Shown piece after piece: positions 4,807 through 33,454 of a DNA stretch of 64,000 nucleotides; position 1 is the stretch's first letter; every line of letters begins with the position of its first letter. The position numbers and the translations under genes were made by a program. The DNA is from Candidatus Melainabacteria bacterium 17Bon1m (GTDB taxonomy: Bacteria; Cyanobacteriota; Vampirovibrionia; Obscuribacterales; Obscuribacteraceae): assembly GCA_032128875.1 (NCBI GenBank), contig JAVLKG010000001.1:512001-576000 (forward strand), read 5' to 3'. The notes under the pieces were generated by a model, which saw nothing but the letters and a program-made list of their open reading frames with translations, did not search any database and was not told the origin of the DNA.

Positions 4807-4860
4807 GTCACTCTGCCTTAACGGATATTCCGGAAAAATTCACGTATCAACTGCTAACAT
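4807..4860 (+). promoter_or_regulatory. Phased box promoter GTCAC/TTAAC/TTCCG/TTCAC-N11-TAACAT
   Basis: Boxes at 4807, 4818, 4828 and 4839; -10-like TAACAT at 4855-4860, 11 nt after the last box, as at six other sites. Confidence 0.6.
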
Positions 4861-4889
4861 CCCCTCACTGATACCCCAGGTTTTTAGAA

Positions 4890-5462
4890 ATGTCCTTTAC
4901 TAACAAGCTTCTCCGGCTGTGCCCCTATTCATTAATGAGCTTCGGGCTCTCGCTGTTTCTCACGTGTCTGTGTGCGCCGGCAAACGCGCAGCAGGCAGAA
5001 AGCAAAACTGTTTACGAGTCCAAGCGGACCGCGCATAAGGTCAGCGGGTGGGAGCGCGGCTTGGTAAAACGGTCGCCAAATCTCGGCAAATATTATTGGA
5101 CGCCACTGACTGAGTACTCCCAAAATAAAGGCTCGCGTCGAACCGGCAAGGGGGTTCGGCAAGCCAGCCCCAGCGGGCAGCCAGCTCAAACTGCCAGGCA
5201 CTATGTAAAACCGCGTTTTGCCCCATTGCCCAAGAACGATCGCGCCGAGTTCTCTTGTGATGAAATTCAAACTCGTTCGGGTGTGAGTGCGAAGGTAAGC
5301 TTTGATAAAGCACGCAGCCAGCTCGCTTCGCGTCGAGTTACGGATTCAACAAATGATTGCTCTGCTGTTCTCACTTACGGAGACAAGGAAAAGGGAGAAG
5401 GCTACAGCTATAAACGACAAGATTTGTCGGTCAGTGGGCGCCTCTACAATCAAAAGAAATAG
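4890..5462 (+). CDS. Secreted hypothetical protein (basic)
   Basis: 190 aa ORF with signal peptide ending APANA. Confidence 0.75.
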   Translation: MSFTNKLLRLCPYSLMSFGLSLFLTCLCAPANAQQAESKTVYESKRTAHKVSGWERGLVKRSPNLGKYYWTPLTEYSQNKGSRRTGKGVRQASPSGQPAQTARHYVKPRFAPLPKNDRAEFSCDEIQTRSGVSAKVSFDKARSQLASRRVTDSTNDCSAVLTYGDKEKGEGYSYKRQDLSVSGRLYNQKK

Positions 5463-5770
5463 AATTCGAAAAGGACAAGCTCCCGGCCGTGCTGAGAGCT
5501 TGTGAAAGCAGTACGAGTTAGGAGCGATTTTTCCCCTGAACTGCAATTTTTGTGCGCGCATCGCAGAGAACCCATCTGCTGTGCGCGGTTTCGCTGTGTT
5601 GACTGGTGCTCTCTGGTTCAGTTTGTTTTACGTCGCCGGCGTTTTTCAAAACGCTGACATTGACACTTGATTGAAACAATTGACCTTCAGAATTCAGAAA
5701 TCCCGAGCCCGCCCTCCCAAACAATTGTCCGCCCGTTTACGGCCGGCAAGCTTTTAAAAGGAATACCACT

Positions 5771-6823
5771 ATGGGTCAAACCATCGGATTTCCCGCTAAT
5801 GCAGCAAAATTGAATCGCGGCCCGCGCACGGCAGCACGCAAGAGACTAGAAAGACAATTACTAAGTCAGAACACTGCAAAAGGGTCTAGTGCCGCCAATG
5901 AGTCCCGCGAGAAGGAAGACGCCGGCGCCCGGAGAAGTTTAGACCCCGAGGCACAATTGCCTGCGAATGAAGAAGAAGCCGACGTCGAAGTTTATCTCGA
6001 TTTGCCGGAAGAATGGTTTGGTCTAACAACACCAACCACTAAGTATGACTACGATGTTTATTTGACGACTGAAACGTTTAAAGCGGCTGTATATGCGCAT
6101 AATCGCGAATATCGTTATGTAGAGCGTTTGTTGCCTGACGGGAAGACTGAGACGATTTATTCGGGTCCGAATTTTCTAGACAGCCGCACTGTAATTGAAG
6201 ACGCCAACGGTCAAATCATTTGCACCATCAGGGCTAATCACCTGGGTAACGGTGTCATTGAAGTGCGATACCTGGCTGATGGCTCATACACCACAGAACA
6301 CCAAGCGCCCGAAGAGCACGACAATTTCAGCTATGAGAAAGATAATCGAGGGCGCATCACCAGCTTGACCCTGGGCGATGGCACTCATTTAAAACTCGCT
6401 TATGGTGGCACTAGTCCTACGCCGTATCTTTTTATAGATGCCGACGGTGTCGAATGGCGGCGCTGTCCGCGTACTGAAGTGTTTAAGAACGAACAAGGGG
6501 AAAACCTTGGTGGCAAGCCTGTTCAGATGGTCGCTGCCAACGAGTCAGGCTCGTACATGTTTGCAAGTTATGGTCGCTACACAGTGATGCACAGAAATGG
6601 TTTCATTGAAGAGCGCTACTTTCCGACCATTCGTGATTTGTTGGATCAAGATTTGCCGGTGACGGTGGCAATTCGCAACGAGAAAGATCGTGAGCGTGCC
6701 GACAAATTCACAGACAGTTTGCGTGCTCAGTATGCAAATGCCGATCTTAAAGTGGAAGTCTTGCCTTGCGAAGACAAGGACGGTGCCATCGTAAATGGTC
6801 GCCACGTGAGCCGTTTCTACTAG
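5771..6823 (+). CDS. Hypothetical protein with YD/RHS-like beta repeats
   Basis: 350 aa with RBS; segments such as YEKDNRGRITSLTLGDGTHLKLAY resemble YD repeats. Confidence 0.65.
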   Translation: MGQTIGFPANAAKLNRGPRTAARKRLERQLLSQNTAKGSSAANESREKEDAGARRSLDPEAQLPANEEEADVEVYLDLPEEWFGLTTPTTKYDYDVYLTTETFKAAVYAHNREYRYVERLLPDGKTETIYSGPNFLDSRTVIEDANGQIICTIRANHLGNGVIEVRYLADGSYTTEHQAPEEHDNFSYEKDNRGRITSLTLGDGTHLKLAYGGTSPTPYLFIDADGVEWRRCPRTEVFKNEQGENLGGKPVQMVAANESGSYMFASYGRYTVMHRNGFIEERYFPTIRDLLDQDLPVTVAIRNEKDRERADKFTDSLRAQYANADLKVEVLPCEDKDGAIVNGRHVSRFY

Positions 6824-12831: not shown

Positions 12832-15444
12832 TTAGAAATCCTCTTCGCCCTTCTCCTTGGGGATGCTAAACCAGAAGGCGCAACCGCCAGTTTCGGCGTC
12901 GACGACGCCGACTTTTCCGCCGTGGGCAGCAATGATCATTTTGCAAATGGCGAGGCCGAGTCCGTAGCCTTTGCCTCTCGTCTTCGAGTCTGCAGTTTGG
13001 AAGAAGCGGTCAAAGACTTTGACTTTATTCTCGTCAGAAAGTCCTGGTCCGCTGTCGTTGACGTAAATCTCTGTTTGATAAGTTGTATTTTTGTGCGTGA
13101 TACTAATAGTGGTATCAGGTGGAGAATGGCTTATAGCATTGCCCAGGTAATTAACCAATACTTGTACAAGCCTATGTCTATCTGCTGTTACGACGATAGG
13201 CTTTACTTTATTGACGAGCGCGACTTTGCGTTGCAGCGCCAGCGATTGAACCGACGTGATTGCTTGATCAATTACTTCGGTAATGTCGAAATCCGAGAGT
13301 TGTATCTCAATGCGTCCGGACTCCAAGTTCTCAATTGTGAGCAGATCGTCTACTAATCCAAGCATGCGATCGACATTGGCACGGGCCGAATTTAGCTGCC
13401 GTGTGCCCAGTTCTGATGCCTCTTTTTCTACTTGCATCTGCAAAGCTCTGAGTGTTCCTTGCACGAGAATCAACGGCTCACGCAAATCGCGAGCCACCAT
13501 CTTCATAATGGTTGTGCGTTGTTTCCAAACATCATTTAGTTGCTCGGCCACGTCGTGTAATACAAAGTCTAGATACGAAATTTCGTCCGTGCCCGAAACC
13601 TGCGGTTTAAGCGGTTCTCGCAGTGGCAGGCGTGTTGAATTGTAAGTCAGTTGCTGCATGCGGCTGGAGATATCTCGGCCGAAGAGAAACACAAGAATGA
13701 AAGAGAGAAAGAGGCTGCCGATTATACCGCCGGTGATAATTCCTTCAACTCTCTGGTGCTGCTGCGCCTGAGCCTGGCGTGCGGCTTTCAATCGAGTTTG
13801 TTCTGCTTCCGAAAGTTTCAAAAATTCTTCTTGTCTGTAGATAGCGAACTTCCAAAACGGCATGACGCTGTTGTACAGTTCCATCTCGTCTTGCAGGTTT
13901 TCTTGAGTCATGTACGGGCGCATTTCGACAAATCGTTTGTATTCGACATCACCCAAATTCTTCAGTTTGTCCAGCAGCTTACGCATCTCCGCGTCGTCTT
14001 TGACTAGCTGGTAAAGATTGTCGTACTGGTGTTCTGCCATGTTGCGGTAATAGAGACCCTGTTGATGGTCTGTCGATTTTCCGTACAGCAAGTAGTTGCC
14101 CATAAAACCATAAGAGACCACTCCCATGCTCATCATGCGGTTGAGGTATGTGGCAATTTCTGTTTGTTTGTGCTCATTGATGAGCGCTGCTTCTTGCTCG
14201 TTGATGACTTGACCGATACCAGTCAAAAGCATTGTTGTCAGAGTCAGAGGCACAATCACCAAAAGCATCGCTTTCTTGAATATGCCGGGTTTGAATTTCC
14301 TTTCTTGGGCGACGCGTTCTGCTGATTGCCCGCTCAGCTCAAGCCGCATCAGTTGAGTCAATTCGTGAATGCCTGCATGATTATCTTTTTCGAAGGACTC
14401 CACACCTACTGCGGTTACTTCGGTGACATTGGCTGCCAATTTTTCCAGAGTGAGAAGGTCGTTGACGAGGGCAATCAATCGTTCTACATTCTCGGTACCC
14501 TGCGTTAAAAGCGGCTTGGCTTCCTGGTTTATCTTTTCGCCGTCCGACTTGTCGAAGACCGCCAATGACAAACTAACCGCCGAGAGCGGCGAGCGCATGT
14601 CGTGTGCCACCATCTCCATCAAATGCTTTCTGAATTGCGCGGCTTTGTTTAGCTGTGCAGACGCTTTATGCAAAATATTGTCGAGATACGCAAATTCGTC
14701 ATCGCCAAGAATTTCTTTTTCAAGAGTTACTCTTTTCGGCAGCTTGACGGCGTTTTCGATGAGGATTGCCATCCGCTCAGTGATTTCTTTGTTGAATGCA
14801 AAAAGCAGCAAGATCGCAACAATGAAGTTGACGACCATGCCCCAGTACACCACTTTCTTGGTCAATTCTCGATAGTGTTTTTCACTCGCGATTGATTTGG
14901 CGAGGCGGTCTTGCTCGTTTTGCGAAATTGAATAGAAGCGTTTGTAATTTTCGTACGCTGAGAAAACCAAACTGCGCGCGCTTCTCAACTGGCGAAAAGG
15001 CTCTTCGGCCGACTCTCCGGGAATCCACGGACGCAGCCACTTGAGTTTTTCCATCTCCGGCACTGCCAACTCATAAACTTCGCGCGCCGCACGTTTTCTC
15101 TCTTCGTCATTGCCGGCAAGAGCTAACAGAACTTTGAATTCATCAAGGGCGATTTGGACATAATGCTCGCCCTTTTCGCGTGACTTGTCGTCGCGAGAAA
15201 TCAAATAGCGGCAGTACAATCCGTACCCGACCGTACCTGCTGCAATGAGACGATTGGCGTGGATCGTCTGCTCCAGGCTATTGCGCTGATCGACAAGCGC
15301 TGATTCCGCCTGCTGACTCATCCAGCCGACCCATAGGAGCAAAATAATTTCAATCAACAGCGGGACAAAAACCAGCATTAGCCCCTTGGTAAATATCCGC
15401 CGTTTAAATTTGACGTTTGGGGTTGCTAGATCGGATTCCGCCAT
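12832..15444 (-). CDS. Internally duplicated membrane sensor histidine kinase (2x TM-sensor-TM-HAMP-HisKA, one HATPase)
   Basis: Two homologous halves (KFKRRIFTKGLMLV / KFKPGIFKKAMLLV; GDDEFAYLD / GTDEISYLD); H-boxes VAHDMRSPL and VARDLREPL; a single N/G1/F/G2 ATPase domain at the C-terminus. Confidence 0.9.
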   Translation of the reverse strand: MAESDLATPNVKFKRRIFTKGLMLVFVPLLIEIILLLWVGWMSQQAESALVDQRNSLEQTIHANRLIAAGTVGYGLYCRYLISRDDKSREKGEHYVQIALDEFKVLLALAGNDEERKRAAREVYELAVPEMEKLKWLRPWIPGESAEEPFRQLRSARSLVFSAYENYKRFYSISQNEQDRLAKSIASEKHYRELTKKVVYWGMVVNFIVAILLLFAFNKEITERMAILIENAVKLPKRVTLEKEILGDDEFAYLDNILHKASAQLNKAAQFRKHLMEMVAHDMRSPLSAVSLSLAVFDKSDGEKINQEAKPLLTQGTENVERLIALVNDLLTLEKLAANVTEVTAVGVESFEKDNHAGIHELTQLMRLELSGQSAERVAQERKFKPGIFKKAMLLVIVPLTLTTMLLTGIGQVINEQEAALINEHKQTEIATYLNRMMSMGVVSYGFMGNYLLYGKSTDHQQGLYYRNMAEHQYDNLYQLVKDDAEMRKLLDKLKNLGDVEYKRFVEMRPYMTQENLQDEMELYNSVMPFWKFAIYRQEEFLKLSEAEQTRLKAARQAQAQQHQRVEGIITGGIIGSLFLSFILVFLFGRDISSRMQQLTYNSTRLPLREPLKPQVSGTDEISYLDFVLHDVAEQLNDVWKQRTTIMKMVARDLREPLILVQGTLRALQMQVEKEASELGTRQLNSARANVDRMLGLVDDLLTIENLESGRIEIQLSDFDITEVIDQAITSVQSLALQRKVALVNKVKPIVVTADRHRLVQVLVNYLGNAISHSPPDTTISITHKNTTYQTEIYVNDSGPGLSDENKVKVFDRFFQTADSKTRGKGYGLGLAICKMIIAAHGGKVGVVDAETGGCAFWFSIPKEKGEEDF

Positions 15445-16214: not shown

Positions 16215-16264
16215 AACCCGGCGCCGTTCCAATTTCTTGATAGATATACTTTTGCCTGAAATCA

Positions 16265-16297
16265 TTCACGTTTAATTCACGTGTCGGCACTTACTAT
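16265..16297 (+). promoter_or_regulatory. TTCAC-N6-TTCAC-N11-TACTAT promoter
   Basis: Exact motif; no protein gene follows on this strand. Confidence 0.7.
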
Positions 16298-16302
16298 CAT
16301 GT

Positions 16303-16585: not shown

Positions 16586-16719
16586 GTATTATTCTCCGCG
16601 CTTATCTATGACGTCTATGGTGGACGTCTCCTGATACCACAGGTAGTTTTACGCCGGTCGTTTATCGCTGGTAATTCGCCAGCCAGCGTTGGGCAATGCC
16701 AGGCATCGCCCCGCCCGAA

Positions 16720-21186: not shown

Positions 21187-21219
21187 ATAGTAACTGGCAG
21201 TGAGTTAATTTCTCGTGAA
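21187..21219 (-). promoter_or_regulatory. TTCAC-N6-TTAAC-N11-TACTAT promoter
   Basis: Motif on the minus strand upstream of the 21144 start. Confidence 0.7.
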
Positions 21220-21284
21220 TATCAATTTGGTTTACAGCTATTTTTCAACTTTGCTTTCCGTAGTTTGACCCAAAATTGTTGCAG

Positions 21285-23096
21285 CTATGTAACTGCGGTT
21301 TGATTTCCGTTGGTGTTTGGATTTGTCAGCGGGGGCATTTTGATTGGGTCGTTCCAAACACCGGTGACCGGGTTGAACGTTTTGCTGTGAGTATTGCGGT
21401 ACTCGGATACGTAAATCGGGTCGATGCCTTCGATGCCTTCGAGTCCGAGCAATCTTCCTGTCGAAGCGACTTCTTGCGGTGGGAGTGGAACGAGTTTGGG
21501 GTCCACTGCGGCAACGCGGATTGGTTTGTTGGGAACTGTGAGGAAAGCAGGAGCGACGTTCGGTTTGCGAATTCCGTTTTCGTCCAGGTCGGCAACTTGC
21601 GTTTTCGGCTTCGGAAGCAGTTGTGTTCTTGCTGCAACTTGCGTCGGTGTTTGATCCGGAACGATGTTCGGAGTGGTATTTGGGGTGGTGTTCGGAGTAG
21701 TGTTGTTCGAGCCGGTATTGCTGCTGCCGCTCTTCTTGCCACCCTTGCCGCCTTTTCCGCCACCTTTGCCAGCTTGTTGAGCTGCTTTGGCGCCGAGTCT
21801 TTCGGCTTCGGAGGCTGCACCGCGCATCAGACCAGCGAAGTCGAATGCATACTTAACAGCTGCTGTGGCGAGGAAGTTGCAAGCGCTGACGATGTAGAGA
21901 CCGCTGGAAGCTTCGCTTTTAGTAAGGGCGAGGATGAGGATGACGACGTTCCAGAAGAAAGACCAGAATGCCAGAGTGATTACGCCTTGGCACCATGCCG
22001 GGAATGCGTCTCTGAAGAGCTTCATCGGCCAGACCCAGAGCGCTGCCATGATTGGTCCGACGAAGAAGAGGTAGTACATGAACGCCATTTGGAAGGCGGT
22101 GAGGATAGACCATGCAGTGTTGATGCCGGCGTTGGACATGAACATAGCCATGCGCATACCGAGCGAACCTTGGCTCATGGTTCCGTCGTCGCGGTTGGCT
22201 GGAACTTCATTGAGACCGACGCAAGGATCAACCAGTTTGCCCCACATCATTCCTTCGCCTTTGGCGAAAGGCTCGTTGCCGCGGGGGGAAGTGTCGGCTG
22301 GCGGGAGGTTGGCGATGCTGCCGTCGTTTTCAGACAAGGAGCGAACACCGAAAGCGCGGATTTCAGCGCACATCGCATCTTGGTACATGTCGGTGCCTTG
22401 AATGCGGCGGTACTCGGAAGCGATGGTGTACTGGAGGCTATTGCCGAGGTCGATTGAGTAGTTGACGACGAGGTAGGTGCTGGGGACGAGGAAAACGCCG
22501 ATGATTGCGCGTTGGATGCCTTCGAGTGGGCTAGCTTGTCCGACCATGCACGGATTGCCTTGGGCGATGATCGCTCTGACTTGTGTGAGCACTGCGCCTG
22601 GAAGAATGAGAAGCAGAGCCATCGGTACGAAGAATCCGTCGCGGAGTCTGTTCCAACGGTTGCCACCTTCGGTGGTGAAGTTCTTCATCACGCGCTGGCA
22701 GTAGTCGATTGCTTGAATGGCTTGCTCGCGAGCAATTTCACCAGCATTGTTGCCAGCTTGATTTTGTTGAGCTTGCTGGGTTGCTTGTGCTTGCGGAACA
22801 GAGTTGCTGGGTTTTTTCTGTTTTGCTACGGTTCTGTCTGCTCTGTTTTCCATAACACGAGCTTGCTGCGTGTTGTTCCACAGTCCAGGAACGAGCTTCA
22901 GCGATTCTGCCGTTGCATCGAGCTGGGGCATACCCACGTAGGTGTCCCAGTTTCTGTTTTGTACAGAGAGTGGGTCGCCTTTGGCGTTGGCATCAAAACA
23001 AAAAGCAGTCACTACGAACAGTGCTGCCATCAAAGCAAGTACAACCGACTTGGCTGATTTGTTATCGGTGAAAACCGAAGAAACGCTGCGTGTCAT
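21285..23096 (-). CDS. VirB6/TrbL-like membrane protein, subfamily A (A4)
   Basis: Signal peptide; core DYC..NFTTEGGNRWNR, LLILPGAV, YSIDLGNS, VGPIMAALWVWP..F..W; Gly/Lys- and Pro-rich tail. Confidence 0.75.
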   Translation of the reverse strand: MTRSVSSVFTDNKSAKSVVLALMAALFVVTAFCFDANAKGDPLSVQNRNWDTYVGMPQLDATAESLKLVPGLWNNTQQARVMENRADRTVAKQKKPSNSVPQAQATQQAQQNQAGNNAGEIAREQAIQAIDYCQRVMKNFTTEGGNRWNRLRDGFFVPMALLLILPGAVLTQVRAIIAQGNPCMVGQASPLEGIQRAIIGVFLVPSTYLVVNYSIDLGNSLQYTIASEYRRIQGTDMYQDAMCAEIRAFGVRSLSENDGSIANLPPADTSPRGNEPFAKGEGMMWGKLVDPCVGLNEVPANRDDGTMSQGSLGMRMAMFMSNAGINTAWSILTAFQMAFMYYLFFVGPIMAALWVWPMKLFRDAFPAWCQGVITLAFWSFFWNVVILILALTKSEASSGLYIVSACNFLATAAVKYAFDFAGLMRGAASEAERLGAKAAQQAGKGGGKGGKGGKKSGSSNTGSNNTTPNTTPNTTPNIVPDQTPTQVAARTQLLPKPKTQVADLDENGIRKPNVAPAFLTVPNKPIRVAAVDPKLVPLPPQEVASTGRLLGLEGIEGIDPIYVSEYRNTHSKTFNPVTGVWNDPIKMPPLTNPNTNGNQTAVT

Positions 23097-23129
23097 GTAT
23101 GCAGTGCCTGGGGGGTGGGGGACCTTTAG

Positions 23130-23162
23130 ATATTAAAGAGGAGATCGTGAAAACCACGTGAA
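23130..23162 (-). promoter_or_regulatory. TTCAC-N6-TTCAC-N11-TAATAT promoter
   Basis: Exact motif upstream of 23096; three extra TTCAC boxes on the + strand at 23214, 23226 and 23238. Confidence 0.75.
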
Positions 23163-23396
23163 CGCGCAAATTTAGGCGCCTGTGAAGGTTTTGGCTGTTG
23201 AGCCGAGCGAATGTTCACCCTCATGTTCACGCTGAAATTCACGCGATCAAGCCAGAGAATTAATGTGTTTTTTTTCGAGACGTAACTCGACATCAATTCG
23301 ACCCAAAAAAATTTGAGTAGAAGAACGCCGACCTCCGATTTTTTGTCTATCTCGGATTAATTTTTGCCGTTTTCTGAGGCGTTTCTTTAGCTGAGG

Positions 23397-26060
23397 CTAT
23401 TTGCTGTCACCCGCTTTGTCAGCCAGTTCCGCAGCTTTCTGACCAGCTGCTTTGACGAGTCCACCGAAGTCGAATGCGTATTTGACAGACGCTGTGGCGA
23501 GGAAATTGATGGCTGTCACCATGAAGATGCCTGTGTCGTCGGTCCCTTTGAAGCACGCTAGAAGCAAGATTGTGGTGCTCCAGAACAAACTCCAGAAGCA
23601 CAGCGTGACTACGCCTTCAACCCAGCTGCCGAACGCGTCTCGAAGGAATTTCATTGGCCACACCCAGAGCGCGGCCATGATTGGTCCTACAAAGAAAAGG
23701 TAATAGAAAAATGCCATTTGGAATGCGCAGAGAATTGACCAGCCTGTGCACATCGCTGCGTTGGTCGTGTTTAGCAGTGAACGTACAGCAACGTTGGAGG
23801 ACTCGATACTGGCGTCGTCTCTGTTCGCTGGAACCAGGTGTAGTCCCGAACAGGGGTCTTCTAATTTGCCCCATATTCGCGCTTCTGCTTTTGCGAAGAT
23901 ACCCTGCGGATTTCGAGGTGTGAAGTCCCATGGTGGGGTGTTGAGCGAACTATCGTTCTCTGACACATAGCGAGGACCAAAGGCGCGAATTTCAGCGCAC
24001 ATGGCGTCCTCGTACATGTCTGTTTGGAACAGCCGCTTGTACTCATCAGCAACGGTAAATTGAATACTGTTGCCTAAGTCAATCGCGTAGTTACAGATTA
24101 AATAGCTTCCCGGAATTAAGAAAACAGCTATCATGCCGCGCTGCATTCCATCGATTGGGCTGACTTGCCCAACGATAGGCGAACCTTGCGAAATAATCGC
24201 ACGCACTTGGCACACGACTGCGCCTGGCAGCAAAATAAGAATCGCCATCGGCACGAAGACACCATCGCGGAACCTGTTCCACTTATTGCCGCCTTCGGTT
24301 GTGAAATTCCTCATGAAGCGTGAGCAATAGTCGATAGCTTGTACCGCTTGTTCTCTCGCGATGTCTGCAGCGGAGTTACCTGCTTGGTTTGCTTGTGCTT
24401 GCCCTGATGCTTTTGCTGCTGGAGTTGAGTTTTTCGGTTGACGAGCCAACCCGGCCATCCGCTCTGCTGCTAGGAACTGAGTCTTTTGAATCTGGTCGTT
24501 CGTAGCAAGTGCAGTGTCTGCTGCCAAAGCTTTTGCCTTAGCAGCAGCTTCTCGCATGTAGGTCGTTTTATAGACCTCGTTCTGCAAAATGTTTGCGTTG
24601 TTCTGCCTGTTTTGATTTTGGCTTTGCTGGTTGCCTTGCGACTGCCCGCCACCGTTGTTGCCGCCGCCATTGTTGCCACCATTGCCGCCTCCGGCCCCGT
24701 TACCGCCTCCGCCGTTGTTGTTTCCAACTCCAAAGGCGCCGCCACCTTGCGGCAAATATTGCTGCAGTTGTTGCTGCAAATTTTGGTTATTGGGCTGTTG
24801 CTGAAGCGCATTTTGCATCGCTTGCTGACGCGCGAGACGCTGCGCAGCCAGCGCTTGCTGTGTCCGCTGCTGCGGTGTCAGTTGCGACTGTCCTTGCGGC
24901 TGATACCCACCTGCTTGTGGGGTGAACGTAACCGCTGGCTGCCCCGTCGTGCCACCAGGCAGTGTTACTCCGCCACCGCCTTGGGGTACCTGTGCTCCCG
25001 GAAACGGAAGATTCCCTAACTGTGGAAGTTGAGGAAACTGCAGGTTCGGAAATGGAAGTTGTGGTAATTGAATTTGAGGACCGCCCGGCAATTGAAGCGT
25101 CGGGAGGTTGGCGGAAACATTAGGCGCCTGGCCCTGAATGGTGGGAAGTTGTCCCTGGACGTTGACACCTAATTTAGGAACTTGAGCCTTTAGTAAAGGC
25201 GCTTGACCTTGCAGTGTGGGCAGCTGTCCGTTGACGCGAACATTGAGACTGCCCTGGGCACTTCCGTTTCCGCCCCTGACGCGGCCATTCACGCTCAGCC
25301 CGTTTCCATTCGCGGTGGCACGGATACTGCCGCTGGAGTTGCCTCCATTGTTTCCGCTGGCACTTCCGCGGACGTTTCCGCCAGCACTTGCACTAATGCT
25401 TCCGCTGCCGCCGCCGTTTCCACCTGAATTTGCACTGATGCTTCCGCTGGCATTGCCCCCAGCGCTTCCATTGGCGTTTCCACTTATACTTCCGCTGGCG
25501 TTTCCACCGGCATTACCACCAAAACTGCCGCTCGCACTGCCGCTCACACTGCCGCCGCCCTGTGCTTGTGAGCTTGAACCAAAAACGGTGACGCCGCTGC
25601 CCGGTGCGGGAGTTGTGTAGCCGGTTTTGCCTTTCTTGTTATTTTTTGCGACTTTGCCTTGACCAGCTTGTTGCCCCTGTGAATTTTGCTGGGTGGTTTG
25701 AGTCGGATTTTGGCGAAGCAATTGCAATAGACTTTGCATTTGCTTTTGGTTTTGCATCTGTTTTAGTAAAGCTTGCTGATGTTGCAGCTCCTGCTGCCCC
25801 ACTGCAGGCTGAGAGCCTGAACTGGAGCCAGCCTTGGCTTGAGCACTGGTGCCTGAAACTGATCCCGAAACAGATACGGAACCAGAGCCAGAACCGGAAC
25901 CGGAACTGGAACCCTTCTTGCAATGCGCAGGCTTCTTGATCGGTGCCCCTTTGTCACAAGAATGCGTTTGCGCGGTTGCGCCCACTGTCGACACTAAAAT
26001 TGCCCCAAGTGTCAGCAGGCTGTAGGCGATTGATAATCTTCGGTATTTCAAGGAAGTCAC
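23397..26060 (-). CDS. VirB6/TrbL-like membrane protein, subfamily A (A3), with long G/S/N/Q/P-rich N-terminal extension
   Basis: GGAG plus GTG at 26060; signal peptide; ~500 aa low-complexity region; conserved A core. Confidence 0.75.
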   Translation of the reverse strand: MTSLKYRRLSIAYSLLTLGAILVSTVGATAQTHSCDKGAPIKKPAHCKKGSSSGSGSGSGSVSVSGSVSGTSAQAKAGSSSGSQPAVGQQELQHQQALLKQMQNQKQMQSLLQLLRQNPTQTTQQNSQGQQAGQGKVAKNNKKGKTGYTTPAPGSGVTVFGSSSQAQGGGSVSGSASGSFGGNAGGNASGSISGNANGSAGGNASGSISANSGGNGGGSGSISASAGGNVRGSASGNNGGNSSGSIRATANGNGLSVNGRVRGGNGSAQGSLNVRVNGQLPTLQGQAPLLKAQVPKLGVNVQGQLPTIQGQAPNVSANLPTLQLPGGPQIQLPQLPFPNLQFPQLPQLGNLPFPGAQVPQGGGGVTLPGGTTGQPAVTFTPQAGGYQPQGQSQLTPQQRTQQALAAQRLARQQAMQNALQQQPNNQNLQQQLQQYLPQGGGAFGVGNNNGGGGNGAGGGNGGNNGGGNNGGGQSQGNQQSQNQNRQNNANILQNEVYKTTYMREAAAKAKALAADTALATNDQIQKTQFLAAERMAGLARQPKNSTPAAKASGQAQANQAGNSAADIAREQAVQAIDYCSRFMRNFTTEGGNKWNRFRDGVFVPMAILILLPGAVVCQVRAIISQGSPIVGQVSPIDGMQRGMIAVFLIPGSYLICNYAIDLGNSIQFTVADEYKRLFQTDMYEDAMCAEIRAFGPRYVSENDSSLNTPPWDFTPRNPQGIFAKAEARIWGKLEDPCSGLHLVPANRDDASIESSNVAVRSLLNTTNAAMCTGWSILCAFQMAFFYYLFFVGPIMAALWVWPMKFLRDAFGSWVEGVVTLCFWSLFWSTTILLLACFKGTDDTGIFMVTAINFLATASVKYAFDFGGLVKAAGQKAAELADKAGDSK

Positions 26061-26091
26061 TTTAGAATTTCTCCGGGTCGAAAACCAATGA

Positions 26092-27633
26092 TTAAGCTCT
26101 ACCTTGGTGGTGCGGCGAGCCGCCTTTCTTACCGCCACTGGCGCCATTTTCACTGGCTTCTCTGGCTTTTTCGAGCAGTCTGTCGACCAATTCGCCCGGT
26201 TTTAATTCGAATGGTGCAAAGGGTACGTACATCATCATAACCATGAAGCACATGAGCATGAGTCCTTCCCACTCTGTGTTTGGTACATATTCACCAATTT
26301 CTCTGAGCCAAGAAATACGGGTGACCATGACAAACACAATCAGGACCCACCAGAATCTCCAAAGAGATAGTGTTACTACTGCATTTACCCAATTTATAAA
26401 GACTGGTTTGAATAATCTGCCTACGCTACCCGGCCATGCATAGAGGGCGGCGGCGATAGGTCCCATCAAAAGAAGGTAGCAGCTCATTGCCAACTGGAAT
26501 GCTGCGAGGATGAGCAAGCCAACTCCCATAGACATATTGATCATGCCGGAAGCCATTTGGAAGGTTTGATCTTTAAATTCTTGCGGATCGAGACCGTCTC
26601 TGAGTTGACCTCTGGCTTCTTTGGCTTGTTGCTGACCAAGTGCCCATTGAACGACTTCATTTGCAGTGAATTGCTGTGCGATTGCATAGGTCATCGAGTT
26701 ACCGACGTCAATCGAGTAGCTCATGATCAATTGAGTAGAAGGAATAAGGAAAAGAGCAATCATTGCGCGGAGGATATGTCCCAGCGGTCCGCCTTGGTTG
26801 TCTTCGTCAGGATTTGCGAATTGGGAGATCATCAGCTTCATTTGAAGGATGACGGCTCCCGGTACGAGAAGGAGAAGAGCCATCGGCAGGTAAACATGGC
26901 GGTACATTTGCTGCACCATGCCGATTGCTTGTGATACCGGACGGAAAGGAGCGCGGGTGCTGCCGGTTGTGCCGACTGCTTCGTTGGCTACATTTATGTT
27001 GCCTGCCAGAAGCATCGGGATGTAATCGGAGAGTGCATCGCAGTTGCCATTTTGCATGGCATCGCCCGCTGCCTGCATTTGACCTTGCATGTCGCTAACT
27101 GCGTTGGGTATTGCTTGCTGGGGAGCGCCACCGATTGCTACTTGCTGTGTTGTTGCATTGTCGGCCGCCAAGGCTTGCTGTGGGTTGCCTGCCGGAGTGC
27201 GAGGATAAGTAGGTTGTTCTTTGGTGAAGTTGTTTTGGTATCCCTTATTACCTGTGTTAGAACCTTCTTGGTTCTTCTTGCGCTGCTTCATCATTTCGAT
27301 AGTAAGGGTGTAATCGCGAAGTCTCGTTCTATCCGGAGCCGGCTTCGACTCGTGAACGTATGGGGTGCCTTCGCAATTAGAATCCGGACGCGGCTGAGCA
27401 TCGTGAAGAGCTGACAACGGGTGGTCTTGGTTCCAGCGTCTTTGCTGCTGGGTGAGAGAGTTGCCTTGTCTTTGAGCCAAAGCATCTTGAGCGACGGCGC
27501 CGAACATGATGACCATCAAGATCGCAAGCGCGAGGGTCTTGGTCATTTGACCGACCTTTGCTGCTTTGGCGATGTTGGTAAGGAGGTTACGAGTAAAAGC
27601 CGACTCGTCCGGCGAAAAAACGCGGTTTGTCAT
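26092..27633 (-). CDS. VirB6/TrbL-like membrane protein, subfamily B (B2)
   Basis: QPRPD..HES.PAPDRT, NVANEA, LPMALLLLVPGAV, YSIDVGNS, MGPIAAALYAWP..F..W. Confidence 0.75.
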   Translation of the reverse strand: MTNRVFSPDESAFTRNLLTNIAKAAKVGQMTKTLALAILMVIMFGAVAQDALAQRQGNSLTQQQRRWNQDHPLSALHDAQPRPDSNCEGTPYVHESKPAPDRTRLRDYTLTIEMMKQRKKNQEGSNTGNKGYQNNFTKEQPTYPRTPAGNPQQALAADNATTQQVAIGGAPQQAIPNAVSDMQGQMQAAGDAMQNGNCDALSDYIPMLLAGNINVANEAVGTTGSTRAPFRPVSQAIGMVQQMYRHVYLPMALLLLVPGAVILQMKLMISQFANPDEDNQGGPLGHILRAMIALFLIPSTQLIMSYSIDVGNSMTYAIAQQFTANEVVQWALGQQQAKEARGQLRDGLDPQEFKDQTFQMASGMINMSMGVGLLILAAFQLAMSCYLLLMGPIAAALYAWPGSVGRLFKPVFINWVNAVVTLSLWRFWWVLIVFVMVTRISWLREIGEYVPNTEWEGLMLMCFMVMMMYVPFAPFELKPGELVDRLLEKAREASENGASGGKKGGSPHHQGRA

Positions 27634-27667
27634 TCGTGGGCTCTGGGGGCGTCAGGGCTACACGAAG

Positions 27668-27700
27668 ATAGTAGTTAGGGGAACGTGAAAGTAGCGTGAA
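27668..27700 (-). promoter_or_regulatory. TTCAC-N6-TTCAC-N11-TACTAT promoter
   Basis: Exact motif upstream of 27633. Confidence 0.75.
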
Positions 27701-27890
27701 CGGCATGAAAGCGCACCCTGGTCAGCCTTCCCGGTTTTAATCTTCCGAGAAGGAGGGGCCGTCGAACCGATTTTCGACGCTGCAGTTACTTGAGAGAGAG
27801 AAGAAAAATATGCTGGCTTTCGGTTGGCTCTGTTTTAAGGTGCTCCTTCTTTGATTTGTAATTTGCTTCTAGGTAATTGTTTTTAGGAGC

Positions 27891-30344
27891 CTAAGACCAC
27901 CAGCTATTGCTCAGTGCTTGTGGCACTGGAGGCTTGACTGGGGTCTCTGCCTGCGCCCAGGCGCCGCGCTGACGCAGGACTGTGCCGAGAGCGTGGTTGA
28001 GATTCGGTTTGCGAGATTCGGGAGCGGACCGCCCCTGAAGGTCGCTAGTAAAATCAGCGACTGTGACGAGTACTTCTTCCTGCGGCTCGAACGATTGCTG
28101 GGTGTTTGGCACCAGGCTAAAACCAGTGAGAGGTGGTGCACTGACGGGCGGCGCCGTGGCTGCAGCTGCTTCTGCGACTGTTTGCAGCTTGGAGAGCAAT
28201 TGCTGAGGCGTCAGCGCTACGCCGGATGGAACTTTGGCAAATCCGGCCGCAGGCTGTCCGCTCACCATTGGGGGCGGCGGGTAATTGAAGCGCTGGTCTC
28301 TGAGTGCGGCGATTCTAGGATCATCGTTCGAGTTCATTTCTGACTCCTGATTGGGGGTGGAGGTGGAGGTGGAGGATGGGGAGAAGTCTTCTGCTTCTAT
28401 TTCTGCTTTTACTTTTTCTAGATAGATAAGATCCGGATCTTGGTGCGGGACGCTCGCCGGATAGTGCATCACGTTCTGAATCGAGTTGCCGAGCACGCTG
28501 CCGATTGTGTTTCTCGGCAATGGCGCAACCGGATGTCCGGATGAAGGCGGTGCCGCACAGACGGGGTCATTCCAAACACCGGTTTCTTTGTTGAGCGTGC
28601 ATTTTGTTTCGACTGGTGTTTCTTGTACGTCAGGAGACCAGCCAGTCATTGGGTCGGAAAAGGCGATGCGAGGTGCGGCAGGTTGGATTGATTCGGCGGG
28701 GGTTGCAGGAACAGCAGGCACGACCGGAGCGACGGGGGCTGCCAGCGGTGGTTTTGAAACGTTTTGGGGAGAAACGAGCGGCATTGGTCCTTTCGCATTA
28801 GCTTTGAGCGGGGCCGCTGGAACCTTGGGCAATTCATTGCCCTCGTCATCGTGAGTAACTGTGAATCCTGCCATTCTGGCAGCGATTGGAGCAGCGCTGG
28901 CGACTTTGTCCGGAGCCGCTGCAGGAGCGCTATTTTGTTTGCTGCCGGCGCCTTTCGAGCCACCTTTCTTGCCACCCTTGCCGCCGCCTTTGCCACCACC
29001 GCCGCCACCACCTTCCGCGCCTGCTGCAACTTCAGCGCCGATCATTTCGCACTGTTGAACAGCGCTCTTCATGATGGCAGCGCAGTCAAATGCATGTTTT
29101 ACAGAGGTCGTCGCGAGTACGTTCAGCGCAGTCACCATGTATAGACCGGTCGAAGCTTGTGCTTTGGTCATTGCCAGAAGGCAGATGGTGATTTGCCAGA
29201 GGAAACTCCAGAACGCCAGCGTAATGCAGCTTTCAACCCAGGTGGGGAATGCTTGTTTGAACATTTGGGTCGGCCATGCCCAGAGCCCGGCCATGATCGG
29301 ACCAGCGAAGTAGAGGTAGTAAAAGAAAGCCATTTGGAACGCGGTTAGCATTGCCCAACCGGCGCAAAGCCCTGCGTTAGCTGTGTACATGCCCATGCGT
29401 GTTGCAATCGATGCTTGCGGCATGATGGTGTCTTCGCGGTTGGGCGGAACAAGATAGAGACCGGTGCAGGGATCGCTGATTTTGCCCCAAAGGCGACCTT
29501 CAATTTTCGCGAACGGCTCGTTGCCGCGGGGGGAAAGATCTGGGGAGATATCTTTGCTCAGCGAACCTTCGGCTTCAGCCAAATAACGAACACCGAATGC
29601 GCGGATTTCTGCGCACATTGCGTCGCGGTACATGTCACCGCCGACGATGCGCGAGTATTCTGAACTGACTGTGTAGTGAAGGCTGTTGCCCAGGTCGATG
29701 GCGAAGTTTGTGACGAGGCAGCTTGCCGGAACCAGCGCGACTGCAATGATTCCGCGCTGTATACCTTCGAGCGGGCTGGTCGCACCGAGGACCGGGTTGC
29801 CTTGCGCCATGATTGCTCTTACTTGTGTAAGGACGGCACCAGGCAGAATCAGCAAAAGTGCGATAGGCACGAAAACATTGTTGCGGTGTCTGTTCCAACG
29901 GTTGCCGTCCGATGTCGTGAAGTTTTTCATAAAACGCGAAGCGTAGTCGATGGCCATGCACGCCATGTCGCGTGCGATGTCACCGGCTGAGTTGCCGACT
30001 TGGCTTTGACCGGCTTGCGACTCGGCGGCAGCACCCTTGGTGGCATTTTTCGGACGAAGCGATTTTGCTGCAATCAGTTCGGCTCTGTTCTTGGACACTT
30101 GGCCTACTTGCTGGTCCTTTACCTCGCCTTGTTTTTTTGCAAGCGCCTCTGCTTCCTCTGCGAGCTCGTCGGGCTTCATCGCTTGGTTTTGCTCTTCTTC
30201 CATCGACTTCAAATTGGTCTTGTTCACATCTTCAGCAAATGCTTGAGAGTTGCAAGCGAAAAACGAGATGAGTAGCGCGCTCACAAAGGTGAGGACGAAA
30301 CCAGCGTGTTGCATTTTTTGAAGATTGGACTTCGACAATTTCAC
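27891..30344 (-). CDS. VirB6/TrbL-like membrane protein, subfamily A (A2), with long Pro-rich C-terminal extension
   Basis: GAGG plus GTG; signal peptide; conserved A core; C-terminus homologous to the A4 tail plus the 20419-21144 protein. Confidence 0.75.
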   Translation of the reverse strand: MKLSKSNLQKMQHAGFVLTFVSALLISFFACNSQAFAEDVNKTNLKSMEEEQNQAMKPDELAEEAEALAKKQGEVKDQQVGQVSKNRAELIAAKSLRPKNATKGAAAESQAGQSQVGNSAGDIARDMACMAIDYASRFMKNFTTSDGNRWNRHRNNVFVPIALLLILPGAVLTQVRAIMAQGNPVLGATSPLEGIQRGIIAVALVPASCLVTNFAIDLGNSLHYTVSSEYSRIVGGDMYRDAMCAEIRAFGVRYLAEAEGSLSKDISPDLSPRGNEPFAKIEGRLWGKISDPCTGLYLVPPNREDTIMPQASIATRMGMYTANAGLCAGWAMLTAFQMAFFYYLYFAGPIMAGLWAWPTQMFKQAFPTWVESCITLAFWSFLWQITICLLAMTKAQASTGLYMVTALNVLATTSVKHAFDCAAIMKSAVQQCEMIGAEVAAGAEGGGGGGGKGGGKGGKKGGSKGAGSKQNSAPAAAPDKVASAAPIAARMAGFTVTHDDEGNELPKVPAAPLKANAKGPMPLVSPQNVSKPPLAAPVAPVVPAVPATPAESIQPAAPRIAFSDPMTGWSPDVQETPVETKCTLNKETGVWNDPVCAAPPSSGHPVAPLPRNTIGSVLGNSIQNVMHYPASVPHQDPDLIYLEKVKAEIEAEDFSPSSTSTSTPNQESEMNSNDDPRIAALRDQRFNYPPPPMVSGQPAAGFAKVPSGVALTPQQLLSKLQTVAEAAAATAPPVSAPPLTGFSLVPNTQQSFEPQEEVLVTVADFTSDLQGRSAPESRKPNLNHALGTVLRQRGAWAQAETPVKPPVPQALSNSWWS

Positions 30345-30358
30345 TGTTGATTCCTCGC

Positions 30359-31711
30359 TTACTTGCCGCTCGAAGCTGCTTTGCCCATCTTTTCGCCGAT
30401 TTCGGCCGCTTTCATACCGGCTGCTTTGACCAGTCCGGAGAAGTCAAATGCGTGTTTGACTGAGCCTGTGGCGAGGAAATTCAAAGCCGTTAGCATGAAG
30501 ATGCCCGTGTCGTCTGTGCCTTTGAAGCAAGCGATGAGGAGTACTACTGTTGTCCAAAAAAAGCTCCAGAAGCAGAGGGTAATGACGCCTTCAACCCATA
30601 TGCCGAACGAATCTCTGAACACTTTCAACGGCCAGACCCAAAGACCAGCGAATACAGGACCGATGAAGAACAAGTAGTAAAAGAAAGCTGTTTGGAATGC
30701 GCAGCATATTGTCCAACCGGTATTCGCTGCTGCGTTTGTCGAGAAGAGAACGGCGCGAGCGGCAATTGTTGAAGCCGGCATCGATGCGTCATCGCGGTTG
30801 GGAGGAACCAGGTAGAGACCGGCGCATGGATCGTTGAGTTTGCCCCAGAGTCTGCCTTCTGCAGGTGAGAAGAGACCTGCAAAACGTGGGGCGAGGTCTG
30901 GGTCAGGAACTTTGAGCGAGCCTTCATTTTCCGAAAGATAGCGCACTCCGAATGCGCGAATCTCGGCGCACATCGCATCGTGATACATGTCCGTGCCGCA
31001 CATGTTGCGGTATTCCTGAGCGATTGTGTACTGAAAACTGTTGGCGAGGTCTACGGCGTAATTGACGATCAAGTAGCTGGCGGGGATGAGGAAAACGCCG
31101 ATGAACGAACGTTGAAGACCGTCGATTGGGCTGACTTGACCGACTACCGGATTGCCTTGTGCGATGATGGCGCGCATTTGCGACATTACTGCACCGGGAA
31201 GGAGGAAAAGAATTCCGATCGGTACGAACACGCCATCACGAAAACGATTCCAACGGTTGCCGCCTTCAGTAGTAAAGTTTTTCAAAAAACGCGAGCAGTA
31301 GTCGATTGCTGCGCAACCTTGATCGCGTGCGATGTCGGCTGCAGAATTGCCTGCTTGAGTGGCTTGCGCTTGACCGGTCGCTTTGGCTGTCGGAGCGGTG
31401 TTGCGCGGTTGGTTCATCTGACCGATCATGCGCTCGGTTTGATTCCAGCGTGACATTCGCAGGACGATCGCTTTGAGTTTTTCGGGAGGAAGTTTTGAGA
31501 GCGCTTCGGCGATTGCATCCAAGCGTTCTTTCTTGATTGCCTTGTCGTATTCTTTTGCCGCTTTGACAGATGTCGAGGCGCCGTCTGTTCCCATTTTTTC
31601 TTTCGGGCGTAGTCCTTGAGCCAGACATTCTGGCGCGGCTACCGTGAGAATCAGCATTAGAACTGCCACACCGGCGAGAGCTATTTTTGTGATATTGCCT
31701 GAAGATGACAC
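30359..31711 (-). CDS. VirB6/TrbL-like membrane protein, subfamily A (A1, minimal form)
   Basis: GAGG plus GTG; conserved A core; ends like A3 (FKGTDDTGIFM...VKAAG.KAAE). Confidence 0.75.
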   Translation of the reverse strand: MSSSGNITKIALAGVAVLMLILTVAAPECLAQGLRPKEKMGTDGASTSVKAAKEYDKAIKKERLDAIAEALSKLPPEKLKAIVLRMSRWNQTERMIGQMNQPRNTAPTAKATGQAQATQAGNSAADIARDQGCAAIDYCSRFLKNFTTEGGNRWNRFRDGVFVPIGILFLLPGAVMSQMRAIIAQGNPVVGQVSPIDGLQRSFIGVFLIPASYLIVNYAVDLANSFQYTIAQEYRNMCGTDMYHDAMCAEIRAFGVRYLSENEGSLKVPDPDLAPRFAGLFSPAEGRLWGKLNDPCAGLYLVPPNRDDASMPASTIAARAVLFSTNAAANTGWTICCAFQTAFFYYLFFIGPVFAGLWVWPLKVFRDSFGIWVEGVITLCFWSFFWTTVVLLIACFKGTDDTGIFMLTALNFLATGSVKHAFDFSGLVKAAGMKAAEIGEKMGKAASSGK

Positions 31712-31798
31712 TTTGTTTTCCTCGGGGGTGGAGAGGCGGAGCTTAGGAGGTTTTTCTTAAAACGTTTCGCTTAGGCGGTTTCGCTTAGGCTGTTTTGT

Positions 31799-33349
31799 TT
31801 AGGCAGCCTTTTTGCCTTGAGCGGCTTGGCTGATTTCTTTGCCCTTCTCCAGGAGCTTGTCGACCATGTCACCGGGTCTGCAATCGAATGGTGCAAACGG
31901 TACGTACATCATCATCACCAGGAAGCAGCCGAGCATAAGAGCTTCCCACTCTGTATTCGCCTGGTATTCGCCGATCTCTGAGAGCCAATGAATTCGTGTC
32001 ACCATCACGAATGTGATTAGCACCCACCAGAAGCGCCACAACGAAAGAACCACGACGCCGTTCACCCAGTTGATGAAAATTGGCTTGAATAGCTTGCCCA
32101 CGCTACCCGGCCAACTATAAAACGCGGCGGCGATTGGTCCTAACAAGAGCAAATAGCAACTGAGCGCTAATTGGAACGCTGCCAAAATCAACAGTCCATA
32201 GCCCAAGGACATATTGATGATGCCGGCGGCCATCTGCCACAGCTGCTCTTTGAATGGTTGTGGGTCGAGCCTCTCTTGAGGCTTCCCGGCTGCTTCCCTC
32301 GCTTTTTGCATTCCTTCCGCCCATGCCACGATTTCCATGGCGGAGAATTGCTGAGCGACTGTATAAGTCATCGAGTTGCCCACGTCGATGCTGTAGCTCA
32401 TGATCAACTGTGTGGATGGAACCAGGAACAGTGCAATCATGGCGCGAAGAATGTGAGCCCATGGTCCGCCTTGAAAATCTTCGTCAGGGTTGGCGAACGA
32501 TGTGCACATGTTTTTCAAGTGAAGAAGAACAGCGCCCGGCAATAGGAGAAGTAATGCCATAGGCAGATAGCAGTGGCGGAACATGTGTTGCACCATTCCT
32601 ATCGCTTGTGACAATGGACGCCAGGGCTGTGCGCTGTTGCCGATGCCACCGCCTGCTGCTTCGTTGGCTACGTTGACGTTGCCGGCGACGATCATCGGAA
32701 TGTATTCTTTCAGAGCGTTGATATTCGCGTTTTGTCCAGCATCTCCCGCTCCTTGCTGCTGCCCTTGCATGTTGGCGAGCGCGCCGGGAATCTTTTGTTG
32801 TGGAGCTAGACCAATCTGTTCCCAAACATCTGCGGTCTCTTTGTTCATCCCGCCTTCGTGCCCGTCGCCTGCAGGGACGGCCGGGTATTTGGGTTTATTC
32901 GGATCGTAGTTTTGTTGGTGACCTTTGTTGCCGGCTTCTTTGCCTTGCTCATTTTGTTTTCTCTGCTTTTGCGGCATGAATTGGAGCAAGTAATAGCGCT
33001 GCATCGTGCGGTCGGGTGCCGGTTGCGATTCGTGGATAACCATTTCTGCATCGGCATTCGCATCCGGACGTGGCTGCGAGTTGTGCTTCTTGGACAGAGG
33101 ATTTGTCTTATCCCATGTCTTTTGCATTTTTCCGAGGCTTGAATCTTCGTCGCCGTCTTCAGCTAGCGCCTCAGTGGAGCCTGCCAGCAAGAAGAGTATG
33201 GACAACGACGCCATCACCACTACAACACCAGCAAAAAGAGCTGCGAGCCGGGCTGTTGTACCCGATGCCTTTTTGAAATTGTTGGTAAAGGGAGATGGCG
33301 CGACGCGGCTAAATGCCGCAGCGCAAAGCGCGATGACGGTTTTTGTCAT
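31799..33349 (-). CDS. VirB6/TrbL-like membrane protein, subfamily B (B1)
   Basis: Full-length paralog of 26092-27633. Confidence 0.75.
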   Translation of the reverse strand: MTKTVIALCAAAFSRVAPSPFTNNFKKASGTTARLAALFAGVVVVMASLSILFLLAGSTEALAEDGDEDSSLGKMQKTWDKTNPLSKKHNSQPRPDANADAEMVIHESQPAPDRTMQRYYLLQFMPQKQRKQNEQGKEAGNKGHQQNYDPNKPKYPAVPAGDGHEGGMNKETADVWEQIGLAPQQKIPGALANMQGQQQGAGDAGQNANINALKEYIPMIVAGNVNVANEAAGGGIGNSAQPWRPLSQAIGMVQHMFRHCYLPMALLLLLPGAVLLHLKNMCTSFANPDEDFQGGPWAHILRAMIALFLVPSTQLIMSYSIDVGNSMTYTVAQQFSAMEIVAWAEGMQKAREAAGKPQERLDPQPFKEQLWQMAAGIINMSLGYGLLILAAFQLALSCYLLLLGPIAAAFYSWPGSVGKLFKPIFINWVNGVVVLSLWRFWWVLITFVMVTRIHWLSEIGEYQANTEWEALMLGCFLVMMMYVPFAPFDCRPGDMVDKLLEKGKEISQAAQGKKAA

Positions 33350-33421
33350 AGTAACGTTTTGGTGAGAAGAGAGGTAGGAAGAGAGGACTGCGGACGAGGG
33401 AAAGGGGTTTTTGGCACACTG

Positions 33422-33454
33422 ATGTTAATTGGGCTTGCGTGAATGCAGTGTGAA
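33422..33454 (-). promoter_or_regulatory. TTCAC-N6-TTCAC-N11-TAACAT promoter
   Basis: Exact motif upstream of 33349. Confidence 0.75.

Follow-up and report, generated by a model that had tools for sequence, protein, structure and literature searches.

TTCAC direct repeats at a fixed distance from a -10 element mark a putative -35-less promoter class in an uncultured member of the Obscuribacterales

Response regulators of the OmpR/PhoB family bind DNA as dimers, on head-to-tail repeats that lie one helical turn apart. In the Pho box of Escherichia coli (E. coli) PhoB and in the PhoP boxes of Bacillus and Streptomyces, 11-bp direct repeats replace the -35 element, and the bound dimer contacts sigma. 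Cyanobacteria have promoters of a related kind without a -35 element, i.e., those with the HLR1 element of RpaB and the Pho boxes of SphR, in which OmpR-type regulators occupy direct repeats near the -35 position. Recognition of promoter DNA by the two DNA-binding domains of a dimer is described in the accessible text of PMC4660055 and PMC4117788, the latter on a tandem element. The accessible text of PMC4689548 and PMC3660660 presents TTCACN6TTCAC as the binding tag of CreB/BlrA in E. coli, Aeromonas and Pseudomonas, where the tag lies in the promoters of the regulon and is required for control by an OmpR/PhoB-family regulator. The present analysis concerns the motif TTCAC-N6-TTCAC-N11-TAnnnT in a stretch of 64,000 nt (hereafter the window) from Candidatus Melainabacteria bacterium 17Bon1m (assembly GCA_032128875.1, contig JAVLKG010000001.1, positions 512,001 to 576,000). 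The host is an uncultured non-photosynthetic relative of cyanobacteria, and the literature search returned nothing on transcription control in Obscuribacterales. Judged from sequence, the motif is read here as a class of -35-less promoters under the control of an OmpR/PhoB-family regulator, with a probability of roughly 0.7.

Seven sites of this class were located in the window, and the coordinates given for them in the initial annotation were all borne out in the sequence. Four of the sites precede genes of an array of paralogous membrane proteins. The sites are listed below with their weight-matrix scores, and they are cited in the text by the coordinate of their first letter on the strand concerned.

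33422-33454, minus strand: promoter of array unit 1 (516-, 450- and 817-aa genes), exact TTCAC-N6-TTCAC-N11-TAACAT, 24.6 bits
27668-27700, minus strand: promoter of array unit 2 (513- and 918-aa genes), exact TTCAC-N6-TTCAC-N11-TACTAT, 27.1 bits
23130-23162, minus strand: promoter of array unit 3 (603-aa gene), exact TTCAC-N6-TTCAC-N11-TAATAT, 25.3 bits
21187-21219, minus strand: promoter of the 241-aa gene at the array end, TTCAC-N6-TTAAC-N11-TACTAT with one mismatch, 20.2 bits
16265-16297, plus strand: promoter of a candidate small RNA, exact boxes and TAnnnT at N11, 27.1 bits
4828-4860, plus strand: weaker promoter of a secreted 190-aa protein, TTCCG-N6-TTCAC-N11-TAACAT with two mismatches, 19.5 bits
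8649-8681, plus strand: weaker promoter of a 160-aa protein (start at 8724), TCAAC-N6-TTCAC-N11-TATTGT with two mismatches, 17.1 bits

The box pair is letter-for-letter the same as the tag used by CreBC in E. coli and Pseudomonas and by BlrAB in Aeromonas, and CreB/BlrA is the closest worked-out analogue of this class. However, the host belongs to the Obscuribacterales and is not a proteobacterium, the targets are unrelated orphan genes, and the fixed N11 distance to the -10 element finds no mention for the cre/blr tag in the accessible text of PMC4689548 and PMC3660660.

Exact TTCAC-N6-TTCAC pairs were strongly over-represented in the window, i.e., six were counted against 0.16 expected, and none of 100 shuffles reached six. 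Two of these six pairs are part of a run of eight boxes at 44795-44875, and four sites (16265 on the plus strand and 23162, 27700 and 33454 on the minus strand) are exact in both boxes and have TAnnnT at N11. When up to two mismatches were tolerated, the box pair alone was not enriched in the window (60 against 67 expected), so the plus-strand sites 4828 and 8649 need other support; these two are placed 30-43 nt ahead of a start codon. For the 516-, 513-, 603-, 241-, 190- and 160-aa genes together, the -10 element ends 30-73 nt 5' of the start codon. The window makes up 0.85% of the genome and holds seven of its 50 matches of at least 17 bits. A scan for consensus sigma-70 promoters from 16200 to 34000 gave 11 matches, and none of the seven sites was among them.

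The same geometry was recognized across the whole genome, an assembly of 7.55 Mb in 35 contigs that is 93% complete. Pairs of TTCAC were over-represented only at N6, with 47 pairs compared with 9-35 at the other spacings. TAnnnT followed exactly at N11 in 15 of the 47 exact pairs, whereas the other spacers from 6 to 16 gave 0-4. With one mismatch allowed, 18 sites were found at N11 against 1-8 at other spacers; with two mismatches the counts were 60 against 35-67, which is mostly background. A weight-matrix scan returned 30 matches of at least 20 bits, compared with 3-8 when the -10 element was shifted and 0-2 when the box spacing was altered. Since the same geometry had served to train the matrix, this control is in part circular, but the exact-match counts are not. 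Free of this circularity is also an unbiased count of all pentamer direct repeats with an 11-bp period and TAnnnT at +27, in which TTCAC ranked first (15/47), followed by TGTCA (10/31) and TGTCC (6/18).

The initial annotation had proposed a genome-wide check for enrichment of the motif 5' of genes, and this enrichment was found. Intergenic positions were occupied by 25 of the 30 top matches (at least 20 bits), compared with 15% of random positions, and the start of a same-strand open reading frame (ORF) lay within 350 nt for 22 of the 30, compared with 16%; none of the 30 was inside an ORF of at least 200 aa. The ORF map behind these position statistics is a crude one, with 89% coverage of the genome. 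When the 500-nt stretches that follow the 50 sites of at least 17 bits were compared with one another, no shared DNA similarity was detected (all-against-all blastn, E 1e-3). From the excess at N11 over other spacers, the promoters of the TTCAC class in the genome are estimated at about 35-40, a figure that is the authors' estimate and not a direct count. The earlier reading as a local regulon is thus replaced by one of promoters spread across the genome. The observation itself is confirmed and is stronger than was known at that time, and the interpretation was right in kind but too narrow on regulon size.

The motif was also conserved in relatives. All 12 genomes of the same genus had the exact 33-nt pattern, with 5-16 matches each, whereas the reversed control gave 0-1. 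Among 25 other genera of the family, represented by one genome each, four had counts of 17, 11, 9 and 6, ten had 1-3 and eleven had none, and 16 genomes outside the family gave one exact match in total. In alignments of orthologous promoters, the boxes, the spacing and the -10 element were invariant, while the letters of the spacers and the upstream flanks varied. Site 23162 was invariant in 10/10 aligned orthologous loci and site 27700 in 8/8; site 33454 retained its boxes and -10 element in 4/4, and site 16265 was found behind the orthologous regulator gene in 11/11 loci of relatives. Site 21219 showed the same TTAAC variant in three aligned relatives. At sites 4828 and 8649, the -10 element, the proximal box and the N11 distance between them were retained in G011 and G007, although the distal box of site 8649 was not retained in G007. 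On contig 4, the gene of a paralogue (42% identity to the secreted 190-aa protein) carries an exact site. The shared architecture that had been described for the seven sites is real and conserved. Direct repeats with an 11-bp period stand at a constant distance from a -10 element of the sigma-70 type, the geometry that defines promoters dependent on a response regulator and devoid of a -35 element.

Two further classes use the same frame, i.e., TGTCA-N6-TGTCA-N11-TAnnnT (10 of 31 pairs) and its TGTCC counterpart (6 of 18). Examples of the TGTCA and TGTCC classes are contig 1:319756 (minus strand), contig 3:676447 (minus strand) and contig 16:18014 (plus strand), and some adjoin other OmpR-type regulator genes. 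Because these classes stand on the same frame, the frame is a general design in the genome. One TGTCA site overlaps a TTCAC promoter at contig 1:242154.

Membership in the regulons of the described systems was considered and rejected. For CreBC/BlrAB, the tag is present, but the best score with the CreB model NF008296 was 236.9 bits against a cut-off of 273, the best score with the CreC model NF008312 was 194 bits against 356, and no match to the CreD family PF06123 was found in the 93%-complete genome. The two OmpR/PhoB-family regulators beside the array, RR1 and RR2, scored 153.8 and 155.6 bits with the CreB model. For the Pho regulon, the best score with the PhoB model TIGR02154 was 225.6 bits against a cut-off of 296, and the boxes are TTCAC and not of the CTGTCA type. 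A separate TGTCA class with the same geometry exists, and TTCAC therefore does not represent the Pho type. In its working principle the TTCAC class agrees with the Pho and PhoP boxes, although the box sequence differs. The RpaB HLR1 and SphR Pho boxes belong to the same phylum broadly, but their repeat sequences and periods differ from those described here. The cre/blr-tag sequence recurs far outside proteobacteria, probably by convergence. The TTCAC class works like a Cre or Pho promoter, outside those regulons.

The repeats, the fixed distance to the -10 element, the position before genes and the conservation, all of which were observed directly, suggest an OmpR/PhoB-type promoter of the form TTCAC(G)-N5/6-TTCAC(G)-N10/11-TAnnnT without a -35 element. 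A phosphorylated dimer of a response regulator from the OmpR/PhoB family would occupy both boxes in head-to-tail arrangement. Given a transcription start 6-7 nt past the -10 element, the boxes would be placed at about -39 to -24 and would replace the -35 element. The bound dimer would then recruit a sigma-70-type polymerase that reads the TAnnnT -10 element. From this geometry and from the adjacency of sites and regulator genes we infer binding by a response regulator, and activation would be the expected effect rather than repression. The initial annotation had ascribed the sites to one two-component system flanking the array. The geometry fits activation of the OmpR/PhoB type, but naming one flanking system as the cause was too confident.

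The genome encodes 68 regulators of the OmpR/PhoB type. The presence of two of them on either side of the array, which had been offered as evidence, is true, but it is weak evidence because the genome has so many. Five regulators have a site of at least 20 bits within 1.1 kb, compared with about 0.8 expected by the authors' own arithmetic. Among them, the regulator whose gene lies directly before the candidate small RNA stands out together with its divergent kinase.

15525-16214, plus strand: RR1, OmpR/PhoB-family response regulator (Pfam REC and Trans_reg_C)
12832-15444, minus strand: HK1, histidine kinase divergent from RR1 (Pfam HisKA and HATPase_c), likely start codon ATG at 15444 as read from the sequence

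RR1 and the contig 14 regulator, both of which adjoin top-scoring sites, fall in one clade. In eight genomes of other genera, from which 10-12 kb around each RR1 homologue was fetched, six of the nine loci had a site of at least 19 bits. In G053, the sole exact site of the genome lies at the head of what appears to be an operon, with the RR1 homologue as its last gene. In G046, the RR1 homologue adjoins a kinase that is most like HK1, and a 22.9-bit site follows 145 bp after its stop codon. This recurrent adjacency points to RR1 with HK1 as the likeliest regulator, a tentative assignment to which somewhat less than even odds are given.

Several observations weigh against the promoter reading or against RR1 as its regulator. 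Four sequencing runs labelled RNA-Seq (X1-X4) cover the region at flat depth with contigs of up to 180 kb, which is DNA-like, so they carry no information on start sites or expression. The eight-box run at 44795-44875 has no TAnnnT at the standard distance, and therefore the boxes are not always part of the TTCAC promoter design. The site-adjacent regulators do not form one clade and fall into at least three in a FastTree tree, so the same core may be recognized by several paralogues. Of the nine RR1 loci, two (in G041 and G053) were fetched after a site had already been seen nearby, and the homologue loci of RR2 that served as the control came mostly from motif-poor genomes. The recognition helix of RR1 is unlike that of E. 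coli CreB, and RR1 is only 64th of the 68 regulators in identity to the CreB DNA-binding domain. Its 80-bp upstream region contains, by eye, a weak half-site only. In the motif-rich genera G041 and G047, the RR1 homologues reach only 48-51% identity, and no site was found near the closest RR1 paralogue in the genome (62%). Phylogenetic profiling of the motif against the regulators pointed neither way; motif counts rise with genome size, and orthology among the 68 paralogues is ambiguous.

The clade pattern bears on the possibility that TTCAC is a shared core and not the mark of one regulon. Several OmpR-family paralogues would then read TTCAC-like boxes and control mainly their neighbours, and the sites of the window need not share a signal. 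The five regulators with a strong site within 1.1 kb come from at least three clades, and sub-types of the motif were seen, e.g., TTCACTCTGAGTT, which is common to both sites that adjoin the regulator on contig 18. Near other regulators, at contig 8:244784, contig 5:575500 and contig 5:105325, the variant TTCAGG-N5-TTCAG was seen repeatedly, and the TGTCA and TGTCC classes have the same geometry with different specificities. However, the canonical TTCACG sites are very uniform, and those of the array, the small RNA and the RR1 clade were indistinguishable. A master regulator that controls other two-component loci would also give such adjacency. On balance, a shared core is doubtful.

The identity of the box pair with the cre/blr tag brings in another candidate, i.e., a CreB-like paralogue encoded at contig 2:650565-651236 or contig 18:74377-75057 that would replace RR1 as the regulator and make the motif a true homologue of the cre tag. 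These two paralogues lead the hits of the CreB model, with 236.9 and 191.9 bits compared with 153.8 for RR1, and in the authors' reading of the alignment their recognition helices look similar to the one in CreB. Two motif-bearing genes are oriented divergently to the contig 18 regulator, and homologues of at least 60% identity occur in all four motif-rich genera. Every one of these scores, however, stays under the curated cut-off of 273, and the partners are missing from the picture, with no CreC above its cut-off and no CreD found. No site lies within 5 kb of the contig 2 gene, and the two that adjoin the contig 18 regulator form a sub-type of their own. In addition, a 68% homologue is encoded in G052 and another homologue in G019 (65% complete), and both genomes are without the exact motif. 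A CreB-like regulator of the class is accordingly considered unlikely.

RR2, perhaps with the kinase HK2, is another candidate for control of the array; the initial annotation had listed two such regulators and two kinases as flanking it.

38799-39506, plus strand: RR2, second OmpR/PhoB-family regulator (Pfam and NCBIfam domain matches)
33866-35713, plus strand: HK2, PAS histidine kinase divergent from the first array promoter (Pfam and NCBIfam matches)

The two genes lie beside the array, the first promoter of which is divergent from HK2, and RR2 is a bona fide regulator of the OmpR/PhoB type. The upstream region of RR2 (615 bp), however, contains no TTCAC box, and none of eight homologue loci in other genera has a site of at least 19 bits. 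In three of the four motif-rich genera, no RR2 homologue was found at E<=1e-78, and the best homologue outside the genus (60%) is in G014, a genome with no exact motif. Control of the array by RR2 is very improbable. The odds that remain beyond RR1, a CreB-like paralogue and RR2 are left for other regulators or for several of them. Beside RR2, a 230-aa protein with an H-E/Q-R repeat (HEQRQEHRHEHRHENRHEHRHEQ...) is encoded upstream on the opposite strand (37210-37902, minus strand), next to a Q-rich ORF of 92 aa. Directly 3' of RR2 are two paralogous genes without a family (39637-40536 and 40588-41373, plus strand), whose products share 39% identity.

A reading of the boxes by an occluding repressor, a regulator from a different family or an alternative sigma factor is just as improbable, since, although the boxes overlap the would-be -35 position, where a bound protein could block the polymerase, and an extracytoplasmic function (ECF) sigma factor is among the regulon members, the sites lack a good -35 element (0/7 among the consensus sigma-70 matches), PhoB-type promoters without a -35 element normally require an activator, the TAnnnT -10 element is of the sigma-70 and not the ECF type, and head-to-tail repeats with a one-turn period are the known binding mode of the OmpR/PhoB family.

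Under the preferred reading of an activated -35-less promoter, seven units of the window stand behind a copy, i.e., four array units, an RNA of about 285 nt, the secreted 190-aa protein and the 160-aa protein, which is weakly MshEN-like. The co-regulated set named in the initial annotation holds for the array, the secreted protein and the RNA, whereas its MshEN-like member reached only 23.8 bits against a cut-off of 38.

The RNA was predicted behind the RR1 gene, where site 16265 lies 51 nt 3' of the stop codon (RR1 gene, 15525-16214) and no ORF was found downstream.

16304-16586, plus strand: candidate structured small RNA of about 285 nt, with a strong intrinsic terminator at its end (stem at 16549-16576 and a T run behind it)

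The stretch folds better than 200 of 200 shuffles (z = -3.3), and the 5' and 3' ends of the RNA are predicted to pair. Eleven orthologues were aligned with a mean column identity of 81% and long invariant blocks, and six of the 64 predicted pairs had compensatory changes. A search of Rfam gave no family match. From the sequence, 16304-16586 is a good candidate for a small RNA with predicted ends.

The array is specific to Obscuribacterales.

20419-33349, minus strand: array of six paralogous membrane proteins (516, 450, 817, 513, 918 and 603 aa) and a 241-aa protein

The array is composed of four predicted transcription units with one promoter copy each (33454, 27700, 23162 and 21219), because the promoters are placed before the 516-, 513-, 603- and 241-aa genes. 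In BLASTP comparison, a helical membrane core of about 350 aa is common to the six membrane proteins, which also have variable low-complexity extensions. No match to a Pfam, NCBIfam or PHROGs family was found for the array proteins, a profile search of the PDB sequences gave nothing better than E 0.15, and an AlphaFold model with a predicted local distance difference test (pLDDT) value of 64 had no Foldseek match at E<=0.001. The 58 homologues found were all annotated as hypothetical or had no name, and the existing names were Candidatus Obscuribacterales, Melainabacteria or another metagenome-assembled genome (MAG). At the homologue locus in G018, two same-strand sites of 23.2 and 20.5 bits were detected, the second about 160 nt before the start codon of the homologue. 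Five other fetched homologue loci had no site of at least 14 bits; there the homologues closely follow other genes, and the fetched stretches may miss the operon promoters.

Next to the array, the contigs of X1-X4 branch at 18196-18246 and 20361-20391, and several of them join 18221-18246 to 20361-20367, with omission of about 2.1 kb. The omitted stretch holds a 217-aa gene and the gene for a patatin-like phospholipase, which points to a cassette that is variably present in the population or to a short dispersed repeat at both ends. The patatin-like protein (18971-20350) contains a stretch of more than 40 serines, encoded by a run of TTC/GTC triplets at 19195-19329.

Elsewhere in the genome, 32 downstream genes were tested, and most had no family. 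The family matches included an ECF sigma factor, a DPBB domain (Pfam 'lytic transglycolase'), a trypsin-like protease, a PEMT-like methyltransferase and DUF2490. Across the genome, most of the promoters precede genes for orphans that are either secreted or membrane proteins, and one precedes that of an ECF sigma factor. As an impression only, this gene content suggests an envelope or surface programme.

Two other arrangements of the boxes were found in the window, both of which had been missed in the initial annotation.

44795-44875, plus strand: run of eight TTCACG/CTAACG/TCAACG boxes with a 10-11 bp period, between a divergent 228-aa gene and a 623-aa gene
23214-23242, plus strand: three inverted TTCAC boxes, repeated every 12 bp and 50-80 bp upstream of promoter 23162 (unit 3)

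Runs of eight and seven boxes were present at the orthologous place in G011 and G007. The eight-box run may be a binding platform for several dimers or a decoy. Between this run and the 623-aa gene, a stretch of about 300 nt located 5' of that gene (45124-45426) has 72-91% identity in 10 of the 12 genus genomes and is covered by no ORF; it could represent a leader or some other RNA. Upstream of the unit 3 promoter, GTGAA repeats were found in most of the 10 aligned loci of relatives. The inverted boxes are followed at 18 nt by TAATGT, and an antisense promoter at this position is conceivable.

The mechanism proposed for the TTCAC class is a textbook one, so the value of the finding lies in annotation and in a testable network, and no new principle is claimed. 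For an uncultured lineage, it gives a regulon list of about 35-40 promoters, mostly before genes of no assigned function. The orphan membrane-protein array and the new small RNA obtain a functional grouping, and the candidate regulators become testable. On a broader and more speculative view, which is rather doubtful at present, HK1/RR1 and the small RNA would form one circuit that switches on a lineage-specific remodelling of the envelope or surface, with the array and about 30 orphan secreted proteins as its output, and the 68 regulators would share one -35-less frame that is split by half-site, i.e., TTCAC, TGTCA, TGTCC and TTCAGG. If this is true, the regulatory network of this uncultured lineage would be largely readable from sequence.

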